Shown: in pieces, positions 1,547 to 63,074 of the stretch | Layout: every line of letters begins with the position of its first letter | Position numbering within the stretch: the stretch's first letter is position 1 | Notes under the pieces: model-generated | The model's input: the letters and a program-made list of their open reading frames with translations, nothing else | Databases searched by the model: none | What the model was told of the DNA's origin: nothing | Program-made: the position numbers and the translations under genes | Assembly (NCBI GenBank): GCA_965242695.1 | Contig: CBDESU010000002.1 | Coordinates: forward strand, 544,001 to 608,000 | Source: Cenarchaeum sp. | Lineage (GTDB): Archaea > Thermoproteota > Nitrososphaeria > Nitrososphaerales > Nitrosopumilaceae | DNA: 64,000 nt | Direction: 5' to 3'

Positions 1547-2284
1547 ATGTATGCGGCGGACGGAGCGCCCGCGGGGGCGGGGGGCACGGGGCAGGCGGGC
1601 GGCGATGCGCACGGCACGGGGCAGGCCACGACCGCCGGAGGGGGCGACGCCATCCTGATCGCTGCGAACCGCAGGGGCTACGAGGCGCCCAAGCCGGACA
1701 TGGCAGGCGCGGAGATCAAGGAAATGGCAGGCGCGGTGCGGCGCCACGCGCTCGTACTCGCGGCCGGAGATCCGGGCGGAAGCCCCGGCAGGGGCAGCGC
1801 GGCGCGCGGCGACGATCACGGCGAGTATGTCGAGACCGTCTGTGCGCGGGCAGTGCACGGCGGGGACGGCGCCGCGCGCGGCCCCGTAAGCAGGGCGGCC
1901 GCGCCGGCCGATCTGCCTCCAAAGCTGCGCGAGCACATGGCTGTCCTAGAGGGCAGGGGCTACAAGGTCGAGGCGATCGACAATGGCGAGATAGGCATCG
2001 TCATAAAGGACTACAAGATCCCCGGCCGCATCTGGAGCAGGGAGACTGCGGACCTCAGGCTCTCGACTGACTCGGCGTACCCAGAGACCAAGATCGGGGC
2101 GTTCTGGCTCTGTCCCCCCGTGTCGCGCAGGAACGGAGACACCATAAGGGGGGCGGGCAGCACCGTATGGCAGGGCAGGACATGGCAGACGTTCTGCTGG
2201 TACGTGGTGCACTGGGATCCCAGGCACGACAACCTGCTGACGCACCTGGATGTGGTCGACGACAGGATGTGGAGGGACGAGTAA
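1547..2284 (+). CDS. Degenerate multiubiquitin-like domain fused to prokaryotic E2 family E (UBC-like) domain
   Basis: N-terminal part aligns by eye to the Ubl at 12979-13374 and ends VHGG. C-terminal part is GIVIKDYKIP…YPETKIGAFWLCPPV…WQTFCWY…WDPRHDNLLTHL. TATA-like CATATA near 1518. Confidence 0.8.
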   Translation: MYAADGAPAGAGGTGQAGGDAHGTGQATTAGGGDAILIAANRRGYEAPKPDMAGAEIKEMAGAVRRHALVLAAGDPGGSPGRGSAARGDDHGEYVETVCARAVHGGDGAARGPVSRAAAPADLPPKLREHMAVLEGRGYKVEAIDNGEIGIVIKDYKIPGRIWSRETADLRLSTDSAYPETKIGAFWLCPPVSRRNGDTIRGAGSTVWQGRTWQTFCWYVVHWDPRHDNLLTHLDVVDDRMWRDE

Positions 2285-2365
2285 CACGAGCGCCGCCGGG
2301 ACTGCCGCCGAGCAACCGGGCGCCCAAAAGTCGGCCTGGCGGACGGCGGGGGGAGTCGCCAGCGT

Positions 2366-3782
2366 TCACGGCCGCGGGCCGCCTCGAGTGCGTGGCAAGC
2401 GAGCCAGACTGTGAGGGTGTGCGGAGGCGAGTTTTGGCTGCGGCTGGATGGGCGGCAATTTTGCCGGCAGCCGGGCAAAAGCCGCCCAAGTGCCGGCACG
2501 CGCGCCGCCGTCGCGGGACCGATCAGCCTGTGGACTGGGTCTTGCAAGGTATTCCGGGCATTCCAGCCCCGCCAGGTCCTCGTCTGGCGTGCTTCCTGAC
2601 GATATGGCGAACAGTATGTCCGGGCGGGGCGCGGGCATCCCGTCGACTTCCTTCGTCATGGAAAGCTCCTCTTCCGCAACGCAGCCTAGGTTTCCAAGCG
2701 AGGCGCCTACAATCCTGCAGTTCTCGTGCGTTTGAGCGGCCTCCTCGACGGCGTCCCCGAGCTGGTGCCCCCCATTGGCTCCCGTCAAACGGCGTAGGCG
2801 CGGTAGTCGTACACGACCTTGGTCGAGCAGTCCAGACTTGCGGGCGGAGCGCGCCTGGATCGGATGTGTCCTGTGCTCCCGTACGGAGCCTCTCCGCAAC
2901 GGGCGCGCCGCGCCCGCCGCCGTCGACGGGTGGCGCCGTCCCGCCCCCGATCGCGTCCCTTGGCAGCGGATGGCTGCTTGCCCCCTAGTCGACGGCGGGC
3001 ACTCGCTACATGCCGGGCCCGGGGGCCGCCGCCGGGGCGGCGCCGCCGCGGCCGCGGCCCGTCCGCGCCCTGATGCCCGTGCGGGGCGGCCGGTCGATGC
3101 GGGCGACCTCCCGCATCTTCGATATCTTTTCGAGCAGGGGCCGGTCGCACCGAACCCTGAGCGCGCAGTAGCCGTCCGTCGTCATCTGGTCCGTGATGCG
3201 GCCGCCGTCGCCGCTGACCACCGCCCGCATGCCGCCCATGAACCTGGACAGCCGCTCGTCATCCAGCCTCCATATTTCCACGTCTACGTACTCTTGCCCG
3301 CTCTCCGGCAGCGGCCTGCGCGACAGGCCCGCGCCGATTTTTTCTTCCGGCGGAATCTCCCGGATGGCGCGCACCTGGTCCATAAAGCTGCCCGTCTTTG
3401 CCGCAGCATGCCGCTCCAGCTTCCGCCGAAGCCTTGCAAAGCTGGGATCGTCCGTGAGCCCGACCCAGTATCCGCTCCCGGCGGGCGCCGACGACACCGT
3501 CTCGATCCCCACGCCCGCAAGGGATCTGCGGAACGTCTCTTCGCGGACCCTCGAGTAGAGCTCCACCTTGAAGACCAGGTTCGGGCTAGGGAGCGAGCCC
3601 GCCGACTCCTTGTCCCGCCGGTACGACTCGCCCATTTCGTCGAGCAGCCTGGCCTGGGCGCGGGCGAACGCCGCGGGATCCCTGCCGGCCCTCTTGGCGG
3701 GCGCCCGCCTGGATCTTGGCCTGCCGGGCTCGCCCGCCCCTTGCAGGCCGGGGCGCCGGCGCCGCATCATGCTAGCGGGCAT
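2366..3782 (-). pseudogene. IetS-like S8 (subtilisin) serine protease: open N-terminal domain (3006-3782) followed by a decayed catalytic domain
   Basis: Overlaps the AAA ATPase stop. Past the stop at 3006 the frame reads RVPAVD*GASSHPLPRDAIG (IDSG…HPLL motif), then DGGGRGAPVA (D..GHGT.VA motif), and after frameshifts CRIVGASLGN…DILFAISSG. Confidence 0.75.
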
Positions 3783-60835: not shown

Positions 60836-61942
60836 GTGAGGGTCGGCGTAGTGACGCGCTGGCTGGACAGGGTCGGCGGCACAGAGACCGCAACCCTGTC
60901 CATGCTGGGAATACTTGCCGGCGCGGGGCACGGCGTCACGCTGTACACGAACGCCCCGCCCGCATCCGTGCCGCGCGGCGTCTCGATCGCCGTGCCGAAA
61001 AATCCCGCCCCGCCGTTTCCGTCGAGGCCGCCCCTGCCGCGCGGCTTCCACCCGTACCGCGGCGGGCATGCGGGGCTCATGGGCATGTCCGACGACGACG
61101 TCCTCGTCGTGTCCGACTGGGAGGCGTTCGCCGAGCCGACCCGCGCCCGCAGGATACTCTGGTACTTCCACCTGCCCCCCGAAAGGGAGAGGGCCGTGCT
61201 ACGCGCCGGCCCGCCGCCGCTGTGGCCCGGAAAGTGGCCCCGCCGCGCGTACCAGCGACTCCTTGTCCGCCGGAGGCTGTCGGGGTTCGACCTGGGCAGG
61301 ACCGTGCTGGTCCCCAACTCGCTCTACACGGCGCGGATACTGCGCGACGTGTTCGGCCGCGCGCCCGGCCCCGTCCTGTACCCGCCCGTGCGCGTCGCCG
61401 AGATGGAGGCGCACAGGGGGCGGCCCAAGCGGCGGCGCGCCGCAACCGTGGCCGCGTACTGGGAGCACAAGCGGCACGGCATGGCCATGAGGGCCGCCGC
61501 GGCGGCCGGCGTCGAGTGGGTGTCGATCGGGGCGGCGGCGGGGCCCGGATGCGCCGGCAGGGTGGCCGCGCTGAGGAGGGCGGCGGGGCCCGGCGCCGAC
61601 ATACGGACGGACGTGGGCAGGGCCGAGCTCGTAGAGGCCGTATCCTCGTCAAGGGTGTACCTGCATGCCGCCGACGAGGCGTTCGGCATCGCCGTCGTAG
61701 AGGCTGTTGCGGCGGGGTGCGTGCCGATCGTGCACAACGGGGCGGCCAACGCCGAGACCGTGCCGTTTGGCGAGCTGAGGTTCGACACCGAGGCGGAGGC
61801 GGCCGCAAAGGTGCGGGCGGCCGCGGACGGCCGGTACGACGGGTACCTGCCGCGCCTGGCCGAGCATGCGCGCAGGTTCTCCGAGGAGGCGTTCGCGCGG
61901 AGGCTGCTGCGGATGATCGGGGACGGTGCGGGCGGGGGCTAG
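60836..61942 (+). CDS. GT4-family glycosyltransferase
   Basis: GGTE, WYFH.P, NSLYT, VLYPPV, EAFGIAVVEAVAAG. Confidence 0.9.
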   Translation: MRVGVVTRWLDRVGGTETATLSMLGILAGAGHGVTLYTNAPPASVPRGVSIAVPKNPAPPFPSRPPLPRGFHPYRGGHAGLMGMSDDDVLVVSDWEAFAEPTRARRILWYFHLPPERERAVLRAGPPPLWPGKWPRRAYQRLLVRRRLSGFDLGRTVLVPNSLYTARILRDVFGRAPGPVLYPPVRVAEMEAHRGRPKRRRAATVAAYWEHKRHGMAMRAAAAAGVEWVSIGAAAGPGCAGRVAALRRAAGPGADIRTDVGRAELVEAVSSSRVYLHAADEAFGIAVVEAVAAGCVPIVHNGAANAETVPFGELRFDTEAEAAAKVRAAADGRYDGYLPRLAEHARRFSEEAFARRLLRMIGDGAGGG

Positions 61943-62015
61943 GCGGGGAGGGGCTCTTCCCGCAGCTGCCGAGCCCTGGACTCGGGCCGGATCCGACGCG
62001 CTGCGTTTGCCCGCG

Positions 62016-63074
62016 CTACCCGGCGCCGCCGCCGGCCGCGGGCGGCCGGTCGGCGGGAACGCCGGCCGGCATGTTCGGACCCATGGGCATCGAATGGAGC
62101 CGCCGGCCGAACTCGGCCACACGCGGCCGGCCGGGATCGATCCCGCGCGCGGCAGCTACTGCGCCGACCATGAGCATCGCGGACGCGACGAGCGACACGG
62201 CGGCCGCCGCCGGCCCGTCAAGGCCGGTCTCGATCCGACAGACGGGGACGGTCCGCGGGATCAGCGAGAGCGTCCTGTCCGCCAGATCCCTCGACTGCGG
62301 CGAGACGAGCGCCACGATGCCGGCCCGCTCCGCCGCATCGGCCACAAGGCCATAGTGCCTCCCGTGCGCAAAGTTGCGGTAGTCGGCCACCTGGGCCGCG
62401 GCCAGGCCCGACTCGGACATCTTCGACTCGATGTCGGTTGCCGCGGCCCTGCCCCACACGTCGTGCAGCACGACCAGCCGGCCGGCCGCCTCGATCCCGC
62501 CCAGGTCCGGCGCCGCGGCGCCGAGCCGGCCGTACCCGGGCGGCAGGGACGCGGCGCCCAGGGTCTCGTACGCCCTGGCCAGCCACACGCACGATGCGAG
62601 CACCGAAATGGTCGCAAGAAAGCCGTCCCGGCCGGCCGGGGCGGCGGCGGCCTGGACGATGGCGGATCGCCGCTGCGCCGCAAGCCTGCCCACCCTGCCG
62701 CCGTCGCCTCCGCCGCCGCCGCCGGACGACACGATGCACACGTTGCGCCCCGGCTCGGCGCTTGCAGCCTCGAACGCGGCCGCAATGTCGCCGTTGTTGC
62801 CGCCGGACGTGGCGAGCAGGACGGATGCGGGGCCGCCAAGGCGGCCCCCGTACACGAGGTCCATCGGCGTCGTTGCGCACGCCGGCGAGCCGGCCTGCCT
62901 GTGCAGGACGGCGGCAAGGGCCGCCGTCGTCAGCGAGCCGCCCGACCCCACCGCATACAGCGGGCTGCCGGCGGCGCGCTCGACGAACCGCGCAAGGGCC
63001 GAGACGTCCGAGCCGGCGGCCCACTCGTAGGTGCCCGGCAGCAGGCCCATCTCCTCGGCGTACGGCCTTCCCAT
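62016..63074 (-). CDS. SIS (sugar isomerase) domain protein
   Basis: MGRPYAEE…TYEWA, AVGSGGS, TSGGN, DGFLAT, ESKMSE…DYRNFAHGRH. Confidence 0.82.
   Translation of the reverse strand: MGRPYAEEMGLLPGTYEWAAGSDVSALARFVERAAGSPLYAVGSGGSLTTAALAAVLHRQAGSPACATTPMDLVYGGRLGGPASVLLATSGGNNGDIAAAFEAASAEPGRNVCIVSSGGGGGGDGGRVGRLAAQRRSAIVQAAAAPAGRDGFLATISVLASCVWLARAYETLGAASLPPGYGRLGAAAPDLGGIEAAGRLVVLHDVWGRAAATDIESKMSESGLAAAQVADYRNFAHGRHYGLVADAAERAGIVALVSPQSRDLADRTLSLIPRTVPVCRIETGLDGPAAAAVSLVASAMLMVGAVAAARGIDPGRPRVAEFGRRLHSMPMGPNMPAGVPADRPPAAGGGAG

Follow-up and report, generated by a model that had tools for sequence, protein, structure and literature searches.

The DNA considered here, referred to below as the window, is a 64,000-nucleotide stretch of the genome of Cenarchaeum sp. 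(GCA_965242695.1), positions 544001-608000 of contig CBDESU010000002.1 (C2), in which several defence and toxin systems, among them IetAS, a Hachiman-like system (PDC-M23), ABC-3C and ImmA-DUF4411, are found in a reduced state. The genome measures 3.89 Mb in two contigs (C1 and C2) with a GC content of 67-68%, and the host is archaeal (archaeal small-subunit rRNA model, 1450 bits; archaeal amoA match, 2.1e-118). Ten DNA sequencing runs contain at least half of the stretch's sampled words, and the plainly labelled ones are sponge metagenomes; no RNA run was listed as containing it. Genomes of the family are mostly 1.1-1.8 Mb and those of the genus 1.8 to 3.9 Mb; the extra DNA is largely paralogous, a paralog being present for 63% of window genes and for about half of all genes. 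The window belongs to a region of defence genes and mobile elements, rich in paralogs, in an ammonia-oxidising archaeon associated with sponges. Sponge-associated Thaumarchaeota have been described as having elevated GC (up to 67%) and as enriched in transposases, toxin-antitoxin (TA) and restriction-modification (R-M) systems (PMC7848895). The present region resembles the defence islands of those symbionts in its high GC and in this enrichment, whereas systematic effector loss is not described, and the word 'pseudogene' does not occur, in the part of that paper available to us.

The 64 window genes (g1-g64, a numbering of our own) were called by codon bias. The Pfam scan covered all of them and left many window proteins without any family match; PADLOC models were run on part of them. 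Window positions are given below with their strand, and positions elsewhere with their contig. An initial annotation, made from the sequence alone, had described the window as an island-wide archive of antidote-only and catalytically dead defence components, with ordinary decay in which toxins must be lost first as the alternative.

Two IetAS loci lie in the window, and both show the feature expected from the PADLOC models, an IetA ATPase gene adjoining IetS. At the first, g5 (3772-4668, minus strand) encodes an IetA AAA ATPase (PADLOC IetA, 6.7e-76; Pfam AAA, 2.7e-30) with Walker A GPPGTGKT and DEFD present, and g4 (3006-3782, -) encodes 258 amino acids that correspond only to the N-terminal part of IetS (positions 20-232 of 795, 1.2e-10). 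Directly downstream of g4, at 2537-3005 (-), an S8-protease remnant of IetS was recognized with the IetS hidden Markov model (HMM) and tblastn. The homology continues after the g4 stop in the same frame, across two TAG codons, to 2832 (HMM; tblastn of proteins P0049, P0050 and P0053), and a further piece at 2767-2537 is matched by residues 348-427 of P0050 (tblastn). The start of the protease is degraded in this remnant: VVDSG has become AVD*G (the asterisk marking a stop), and 11 residues are missing. Recoding of TAG (as pyrrolysine) was considered for these codons and for the one between g7 and g8 described below, and was rejected; since TAG ends more called genes than any other stop (1518 of 2965) and a search with aragorn gave no tRNA-Pyl, the in-frame TAGs are real stops.

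The second locus (45088-46775, -) consists of g48 (45810-46775), which is 52% identical to g5 and has intact Walker A and B motifs as in g5, and an open reading frame (ORF) at 45088-45933 with a weak IetS match (E 0.025) and 36% identity to g4. No protease remnant was found beside this ORF by IetS search and tblastn, and an HMM search of the genome found no full-length IetS. The initial description of two IetA genes with protease-less IetS is thus confirmed, and the difference from known IetAS is that both window copies of IetS are without the S8 protease, one of them keeping a stop-ridden remnant.

Full length is the usual state of this protein, as 10 of the 16 g4 homologues found at E<=1e-30 are 760-810 amino acids long. 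The nearest relative of g4, P0049 (70% identical), is itself broken, near residue 335 rather than at residue 258 as in g4, while P0050, the second closest at 48%, is a complete IetS of 765 amino acids. Compared with P0049, the N-terminal part of g4 is 70% identical and the protease remnant 46%; among intact IetS relatives the order is reversed, the protease start being better conserved than the N-terminal part (70% vs 51%). Similarly, identity of the N-terminal part to the outgroup P0050 is 47% for g4 and 51% for P0049, while the g4 remnant is down to 36-46% identity. The IetS protease has decayed in situ and left its remnant behind, and this difference in conservation suggests that the N-terminal part itself may still be under constraint.

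A comparable reduction is seen in the HamB-like genes. The gene g7 (6000-7118, +) encodes only the N-domain of the HamB-like helicase PDC-M23B (positions 4-262 of 1060) and is 79% identical to the N-domain of the full-length helicase at C2:335735-339052. Likewise, g10 (8687-9802, +) encodes the N-domain alone (positions 7-264 of 1060), followed by a novel Gly/Ala-rich tail, and is 69% identical to the N-domain of another helicase, at C2:525651-528998 (H2). In ungapped columns, g7 and g10 are 82% and 73% identical to these different helicases and 40% identical to each other, so that the same N-domain cut arose more than once. Three full-length PDC-M23B paralogs of 894-1115 amino acids occur elsewhere in the genome, with DEAD, ResIII and Helicase_C domains and a HamB match of 1e-58; two of them adjoin a full PDC-M23A gene, a nuclease gene by its PD-ExK motif, and the third adjoins a partial PDC-M23A. 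These paralogs resemble Hachiman (HamAB), although the HamA Pfam model PF08878 misses the PDC-M23A genes and has its sole genome match at C1:765434. The window copies differ in consisting of the N-domain alone, with no nuclease gene adjoining. No helicase or nuclease remnant for g7 or g10 was found within the window by tblastn, where the best match to either of the two A proteins had E 0.017 over 21 residues. The reported pair of HamB-like N-domains without a helicase, each covering only the first 260 or so of 1060 PDC-M23B positions, is therefore genuine.

Full length is the normal form of PDC-M23B. A search of 301 genomes from the class with the N-domain profile gave 19 places in 7 genomes, 16 of them in frames of 928-2241 amino acids; the three shorter frames are g7, g10 and one near a contig start. 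A third ORF with only the N-domain, in another species of the genus (G004), has the same ...RP.F..M boundary. A protein search with the N-domain profile returned only the five orthologues of g10 and is uninformative on the spread of stand-alone N-domains; no relative of g10 was found in a scan of metagenome contigs. The five orthologues are 96, 88, 85, 74 and 81% identical to g10, two of them probably being partial. All six proteins share a common end and the Gly/Ala-rich tail, and all nine internal gap blocks in this comparison of protein sequences are in frame. This evidence suggests that g10 is a maintained gene.

Set against this, the short N-domains appear to evolve about two to three times faster than their full-length counterparts, with 13 vs 4, 15 vs 9, 20 vs 11 and 22 vs 6 unique changes, except where a short form serves as outgroup and the counts are about equal (7 vs 6 and 14 vs 13). 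The ratio of nonsynonymous to synonymous substitution rates (dN/dS) between g10 and its helicase is 0.64, the 90th percentile of paralogs in this genome. One further comparison stands apart: the orthologue P0045 shares 81% identity with the resident helicase H2 in the N-domain, for which g10 scores 73%, and P0045 and g10 are 90% identical to each other, an anomaly that hints at gene conversion between the short and full-length forms. The partial copies could on this basis be recombination cassettes that swap N-domains with full-length paralogs and thereby diversify sensor or partner specificity, a proposal that also draws on the exact end of both HamB-like fragments at the domain boundary and on the paralog richness of the genome (63% of window genes). 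That single identity anomaly, however, is the whole of its evidence, and a cassette would need neither a reading frame nor a tail, yet both are conserved in g10; we regard this proposal as highly improbable.

A function as an antidote can be formulated more concretely for the N-domain. In the solved HamAB complex, the TPR-like N-domain of HamB is the main contact with the HamA nuclease (PMC11914072), and HamB is said to restrain HamA (PMC12278908), both according to the parts of these papers that were accessible. A stand-alone N-domain could for this reason hold a PDC-M23A nuclease inactive. A predicted complex of the g10 N-domain with a resident PDC-M23A has a median score of 0.57 (runs of 0.57, 0.17 and 0.74), the best of three controls scoring 0.00; at least 56% of contacts are common to the runs, and the predicted local distance difference test (pLDDT) score of the partner is at least 79. 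Among 80 solved complexes, 58 attain the mark used here, as do 2 of 110 mismatched pairs, and passing scores of 0.60 or less comprise only 7 of the 80 solved complexes and both of the passing mismatches; further, a like complex (HamAB) has been solved, so that the pass may reflect model memory. The prediction lends weak support to the decoy idea and keeps it alive for this one family, without establishing a decoy role.

A broader version of this idea is that sensor proteins have repeatedly been cut at the same boundary (the HamB-like N-domain three times in two species, the IetS N-terminal part twice), and that the stand-alone domains were then selected as dominant-negative brakes or antidotes that restrain nucleases encoded at the three intact PDC-M23 loci or by incoming elements. 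We consider this quite unlikely; if true, such brakes would constitute an endogenous anti-defence layer made from the cell's own wrecked systems.

Two observations concern the surroundings of these genes. The gene g7 ends in TAG and g8 begins 9 bp further on in the same frame, such that readthrough would give 590 amino acids; because TAG is the commonest stop, this shared frame is taken as a coincidence. At the PDC-M23 locus C2:523387-528998 (+), a gene of 161 amino acids and a gene of 154 amino acids resembling the family famA (described below) precede the system on the same strand. By analogy, the famA-like protein may be an accessory part of the PDC-M23 system, and g9-g10 may be the leftover of such an operon.

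The ABC-3C remnant (24148-26156, -) comprises g30, an MC6 gene (25902-26156), and g29 (24148-25905), a full-length PDC-M68B/DUF2326 ATPase (2.6e-129). The lysine of Walker A is replaced in g29 (GGRGGS, GKS having become GGS), whereas a 43%-identical paralog has NGLGKS and an HNH effector gene; no effector gene was found upstream of g29-g30 by tblastn and coding scores. The locus is thus like ABC-3C in its DUF2326-type ABC ATPase and MC6, and unlike it in being without an effector and without the Walker A lysine. The initial annotation had recorded it as Lamassu with no effector and a broken Walker A. The two defects stand, but the family name does not: a Lamassu identity was rejected, LmuB giving only E 0.011 and 0.026 against the PDC-M68B value above.

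Two ImmA modules are reduced in a similar manner. The gene g38 (35310-36524, -) encodes a helix-turn-helix domain and an ImmA/IrrE M78 peptidase with intact HEYGH (PF06114, 2.1e-15; capP, 1.1e-19). Downstream of it lies a pseudogene of the PIN-like protein DUF4411 (34830-35290, -), split between 35018-35290 and 34830-35057 in different open frames that match PF14367 positions 1-92 and 88-157, in agreement with tblastn of three paralogs. A second ImmA/M78 gene, g61 (58675-59862, -; PF06114, 1.6e-11), also has HEYGH intact, and tblastn and HMM searches found no DUF4411 downstream of it. The PIN partner is thus frameshifted in one case and absent in the other, as had been claimed. Clustering places ImmA in a family of 10, which includes a piece of 52 amino acids and is thus not specific to the island. 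The seven HMM matches to DUF4411 in the genome comprise four open genes and one with an internal TAG outside the window, plus the two split pieces within it, and at least 4 of the 5 outside genes adjoin ImmA paralogs. The DUF4411 gene after g38 has decayed in situ, leaving its remnants.

Damage of the same kind affects g45+g44 (41757-43395, -), an AlbA_2 (Schlafen-like) gene with two frameshifts, recognized by Pfam AlbA_2 and by tblastn of a 516-amino-acid paralog, which matches in three pieces and three frames. Sequencing or assembly error behind the apparent stops and frameshifts has to be weighed here, given that the genome is in two long contigs and that the sites at 34830-35290 and 41757-43395 lie outside the interval compared with independent data. 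That interval, window 1400-19900, was compared with contigs from four other runs, of other studies (X3, X4, X6 and X7), with about 905 differences in all. The X3 and X4 pieces show 0 differences and the X6 and X7 pieces 1-3%, with the same gene order, and between them they span the IetS remnant, the genes g4-g13 and the start of the methylase; the independent contigs confirm the sequence there, and their divergence of 0-3% is too shallow for a selection test. Truncations by deletion (the helicases, the second IetS), moreover, cannot be base-calling errors. We regard an artefact as extremely improbable. In contigs from X3, X6 and X7, position 11538 is joined back to 10558 with the letters CTG between, which points to a tandem duplication, or else to a junction of paralogs, lying between g12 and g13 in some of the genomes.

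Among smaller leads, g42 (39588-39836, -) encodes an HNH-like protein of 82 amino acids in which, by an alignment of five paralogs, the motif His is replaced by Arg; VDRIVP occurs in g42 and its 70%-identical paralog, and VDHI in the other three of the five family members, in keeping with the dead HNH proposed for it. Elsewhere the claim of dead nucleases fails. The larger HNH protein g43 (40063-41580, +) has an intact HNH_4 motif (PF13395, 5.2e-09; PtuB, 7.1e-07), and the PD-(D/E)xK motifs of g21, g24, g32 and g52 look intact by eye, contrary to the dead restriction enzyme that had been listed. DUF5131 is present as annotated in g39 (PDC-M41B/M30B), which lies with the DUF3037-like g40 at 36799-38731 (-) and has DUF5131 paralogs 87% identical. 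The DUF3037 assignment is weak, both for g40 and for g50 (48269-49084, -), which is 40% identical to g40, matches PF11236 below the cut-off (4.8e-04) and lies upstream of the PfkB-like g49. The proposed orphan HicB and dead SNase are language-model leads only. For g22 (18303-18527, -), a possible HicB-like gene, the Atlas score is 0.89-0.90 with 184-189 features in common with DUF1902/HicB clusters, and there was no Pfam match at E<=0.01 and nothing in a PDB sequence search. The same Pfam and PDB sequence searches gave nothing for the putative SNase at the C-terminus of g26, and HicA (PF07927) has 0 matches in the genome.

The remaining candidates for antidotes are small proteins, most of them with a helix...GP(V/Y/F/W) layout, for which the initial annotation had counted ten SocA/YwgA-like genes without a toxin. 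We find nine candidates, which are indeed partnerless, but only g28 (23538-24041, +) is a SocA/Panacea protein by PF13274 (2e-17, 64.6 bits, against a gathering score of 25.7 bits); it is monocistronic between divergent or convergent neighbours and has the GPV motif said to be critical for neutralisation by Panacea (PMC8832971, available part). Two further genes fall below that gathering score: g8 (7128-7700, +; 15.5 bits, E 0.074), which matches PDC-M19A at 5.5e-12 and is 84-86% identical to C2:342300-342764, and g47 (44378-45091, -; 13.1 bits, E 0.37), with a PADLOC DarG match of 0.0023. A third weak, g8-like or Panacea-like candidate is g37 (34096-34695, +; PDC-M19A, 3.6e-04), 30% identical to the g8 paralog and 60% to C2:504043. 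Within the layout, g28 has GPV, famA GPY, g8 GPF and g47 GPW, and g37 is without the motif. Upstream of the secreted metzincin-like gene g46, which has an intact HExxH and an N-terminal hydrophobic segment, g47 forms an unusual pairing (43642-45091, -), with 58 bp between the two genes.

The other five are members of a paralog family of about 160 amino acids, famA: g6 (5549-6028, -), g9 (8008-8517, +, with TTTATA at -28), g11 (9808-10281, -), g12 (10533-11009, -) and g19 (16007-16543, -), the last being 70% identical to g6 with a dN/dS of 0.29. None of 28 famA members matches PF13274 at E<=1, and the hhalign probabilities of the famA profile with single sequences were 0.3% for g28 and 1.3% for g8. 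PADLOC DarG matches of 1.1e-06 and, for g6, 5e-06 cover profile positions 179-221. An AlphaFold model of g11 (pLDDT 92) matched by Foldseek the DarT-binding C-terminal domain of DarG in DarTG (7yk3_B/D; TMq 0.65/0.62, probability 1.00, E 0.04), all other hits having TM <0.3; a PDB profile search with famA gave nothing below E 0.017. By this model the family shares with DarG its C-terminal fold, and it differs in its length and in having no macrodomain match in the Pfam scan, DarT itself not having been searched for. The family is not special to the island: the genome contains 17 famA ORFs at E<1e-10 (first-round profile, both contigs) and a blast cluster of 20 members; the iterated profile grew to about 45 ORFs, and only the first round and the blast cluster were used, as later rounds may drift. 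Tandem arrays of five ORFs at C1:637579-644413 and C1:1592537-1599833, with spacings of about 1.4 kb and about 0.6-1.5 kb and matched by the iterated profile at 1e-24 and 1e-5, may indicate a far larger superfamily or profile drift.

Outside the window, famA genes are accompanied by an overlapping gene for a protein with two transmembrane segments (3 cases) or by a tail domain of about 100 amino acids (2 fused, 4 split). Both are absent from all five window copies, and no coding partner adjoins g6, g19, g28, g11 or g12. Membrane toxins are among the targets of Panacea antitoxins, roughly half of Panacea proteins lie outside recognisable TA loci, and in one phytoplasma 3 of the 25 copies are in TA-like loci (PMC8832971, in the part consulted). 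The window genes are like PanAT in the membership of g28, in the layout shared by g8, g47 and famA, in the pairing of famA elsewhere with two-segment membrane proteins resembling the membrane-disrupting PanT toxins, and in being one of many, mostly unpaired, copies in a genome, as described in the same source. They are unlike it in that famA lies outside the Pfam model, has the DarG C-terminal domain as its sole structural match and is partnerless in the window.

From such data one might conclude that the modules are complete but non-canonical, with partners that go unrecognized, for example a small unannotated or distant gene for the 160-amino-acid family. The 43 homologues of g11 are mostly 153-170 amino acids long and without a Pfam match, so that stand-alone length is the norm of the clade; the Panacea proteins outside TA loci, the metzincin-like gene beside g47 and the many window proteins without a family match point the same way. 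Against it, ORFs adjoining g6, g19 and g30 have negative coding scores. As most IetS homologues are 760-810 amino acids long, full-length PDC-M23B is normal and fuller ABC-3C and ImmA paralogs exist elsewhere, the reduced state is derived and not a variant architecture. This alternative is, in our judgement, very unlikely.

Complete systems share the window with the reduced ones. A ubiquitin-like operon (11229-13398, -) contains the multiubiquitin gene g14 (12979-13398; Multi_ubiq, 9.7e-07), an E2 gene (12605-12982) found by blast with a coding score of 27, and g13, a JAB+ThiF E1 gene (11229-12707; ThiF, 2.6e-34); a paralogous operon lies at C2:101546-105069. Extra Prok-E2_E copies are g2 (1400-2284, +; PF14462, 9.5e-15), with a partial ubiquitin-like repeat, and g59 (57570-58085, +; PF14462, 2.9e-15), the two being 80% identical. 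In addition, g2 resembles the C-terminal third of a 714-amino-acid multiubiquitin-E2 fusion at C2:102928-105069 (41% identical). These extra copies have Cys at FWLCPP and FCWYV, where both operon E2s have Asp and Ser (FWLDPP, FSWH). An apparently intact R-M pair (26682-30525, -) is formed by g32, a GHKL ATPase with an Mrr_cat nuclease (REase_II, 7.8e-13), and the methylase g31 (MTase_II, 5e-23 over 39-412 of 446), with motifs read by eye. The N6/N4 DNA methylase g23 (18636-19960, -) has a Pfam match that starts at profile position 23, and its frame (18636-20309) is open for 165 codons above the first ATG (19811), with SPPY in frame and no ATG, GTG or TTG. A frameshift was rejected for g23 because SPPY is in frame; the gene has lost its start codon or else begins at a non-canonical one. 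Upstream of it, g24 has a PD-ExK-like motif by eye. Since the complete ubiquitin operon, the R-M pair and the intact HNH_4 protein share the window, and parts that are not toxic (the ABC ATPase, AlbA_2) are damaged too, the bias is not uniform.

Counts over the whole window give a similar picture. A crude count of fragment-like genes is 8 in the window, against a mean of 3.4 and a range of 0-10 on C2, and contains false positives such as AAA domains set against CDC48-like proteins, and TPR. Together with the complete systems g14-E2-g13, g31-g32 and g43, this does not sustain an island-wide scope. A TATA-like box (at least 7/8 A/T within -60..-10) precedes 6 of 25 retained genes, compared with 40% of genome genes with an upstream gap and 9.5% of random 50-mers; some retained genes thus have such a box, but not most of them as had been stated. 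The median dN/dS, by the NG86 method, which is biased at the GC content of third codon positions in this genome, is 0.47 for 322 full-length paralog pairs. Most pairs involving reduced genes lie between 0.28 and 0.46, not near 1, among them g2/g59 at 0.28, g6/g19 at 0.29 and g7, g8 and g39 at 0.35-0.38.

A selected library of antidotes or decoys, directed against the effectors of resident paralogs, incoming mobile elements or neighbouring microbes, would be consistent with part of these data. What has been retained is the portion that binds a partner (the HamB N-domain at the HamA interface, in the accessible part of PMC11914072, and the DarT-binding DarG fold in famA), Panacea antitoxins act on membrane toxins among others (PMC8832971, in part), the frame and new tail of g10 are kept across nine in-frame gap blocks in six sequences, the same truncation boundary occurs three times, the N-terminal part of g4 is conserved while its remnant decays, and the g10 N-domain is weakly predicted to bind PDC-M23A (0.57 vs 0.00 in controls). 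The in-situ remnants, however, reflect decay and not collection; the ABC ATPase Walker A and AlbA_2 are damaged although they are not toxic; intact nucleases (g32, g43) are kept; the short N-domains change faster than the full-length ones (equally with a short outgroup); g10 stands at the 90th percentile of dN/dS against its helicase; and a strong A/T box is found in only 6 of 25 retained genes. We consider such a library unlikely.

As for the initial annotation, its interpretation is partly supported. The effector-loss pattern is real in about seven modules, and for most cases its own alternative, that toxins are lost first, fits. A curated archive as a whole is not supported, given the in-situ remnants and the intact paralogous systems elsewhere. 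Of four observations it had named as telling against it (dN/dS near 1, absent transcription, truncation points not conserved in relatives, and cognate effectors intact elsewhere), two were made, at least in part: intact effectors exist elsewhere (PDC-M23, open DUF4411, ABC-3C with HNH, and three famA pairs with a membrane protein), and the IetS truncation point differs between g4 (258) and P0049 (about 335), whereas the end of g10 is conserved in five orthologues and its boundary is also seen in a second species.

In our view the probable explanation is an erosion that takes effectors first, with survivor bias, in which a few fragments may have been domesticated. Under this scheme, complete defence and toxin systems would have eroded within the window (IetAS twice, Hachiman-like PDC-M23 twice, ABC-3C, ImmA-DUF4411 twice), each time with loss or disabling of the harmful part, be it the protease, the nuclease and helicase, the HNH effector or the PIN-like protein. 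Loss of an effector would be tolerated or beneficial, and loss of the neutralising or holding part first would be lethal; because only effector-first loss is survivable, the parts left over would be a survivor-biased assortment that binds, senses or resembles antitoxins. Direct observation covers the reduced forms, the remnants in situ and the existence of intact paralogs elsewhere, and since remnants of IetS, DUF4411 and AlbA_2 lie in place, complete systems decayed on the spot and the reduced parts were not collected as such. Most leftovers are probably tolerated relics. A minority may now be genes in their own right, probably still binding partners from intact paralogous loci; candidates are g10 (perhaps g7), the IetS N-terminal part g4 and the 160-amino-acid DarG-C-like family. 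Selection on these few is plausible, and constraint on some is suggested by the g10 frame and by the contrast of the g4 N-terminal part with its dead remnant.

Several points weigh against erosion of this kind as a full account. The truncation bias exceeds what simple decay need give: both HamB-like fragments of the window and the one in G004 end at the same domain boundary though their closest helicases differ, and the two IetS N-terminal parts end at the same motif though only 36% identical to each other. Pairs in which both members are reduced, g2/g59 and g6/g19, have dN/dS values at or below the paralog median of 0.47, estimates subject to the NG86 bias noted above. With no full-length IetS and no HicA in the genome, the IetS and HicB leftovers cannot serve resident partners. 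Finally, the g10 orthologues were compared as proteins, and the two frameshift sites lie beyond the interval confirmed by other runs.

Outside these systems, g57 (55259-56614, -) encodes an insertion sequence transposase (DDE_Tnp_1) with copies on C1 that are 99.6% and 98% identical, in keeping with ordinary decay in the window. Two huge paralog clusters, of 109 and 103 members, occur genome-wide and include proteins of 2000-2680 amino acids. The gene g35 has 16 paralogs, usually followed by a second conserved family (F25), and this F25 partner is absent beside g35 in the window.

Orphan antitoxins are well documented in bacteria, and the roles discussed for them are relics of degrading TA loci, anti-addiction and cross-talk with active pairs (PMC7192599, available part). 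The present genes are alike in that antitoxin-like genes persist without a toxin and in that the same explanations are in print. They differ in that multi-domain archaeal defence systems (IetAS, Hachiman-like, ABC-3C) are also involved and that a domain of a sensor protein is retained, not a separate antitoxin gene. New here are the pattern in multi-domain defence systems of an archaeal symbiont, the recurrent cut at a domain boundary and the evidence for g10 as a maintained gene.

An understanding of these leftovers bears on both annotation and biology. Annotators should not score partial matches to IetS, HamB and ABC-3C models as systems. Should the leftovers prove to be mere relics, the window would illustrate, clearly and in good resolution, that the effector goes first when a defence system dies. 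The g10 protein can be tested directly against the resident PDC-M23A nuclease. Of greater consequence would be the retention of some leftovers: cells would then put partner-binding domains from dead defence systems to new use, as regulators or antidotes, an idea so far documented mainly for orphan antitoxins and phage-borne antitoxin-like genes.

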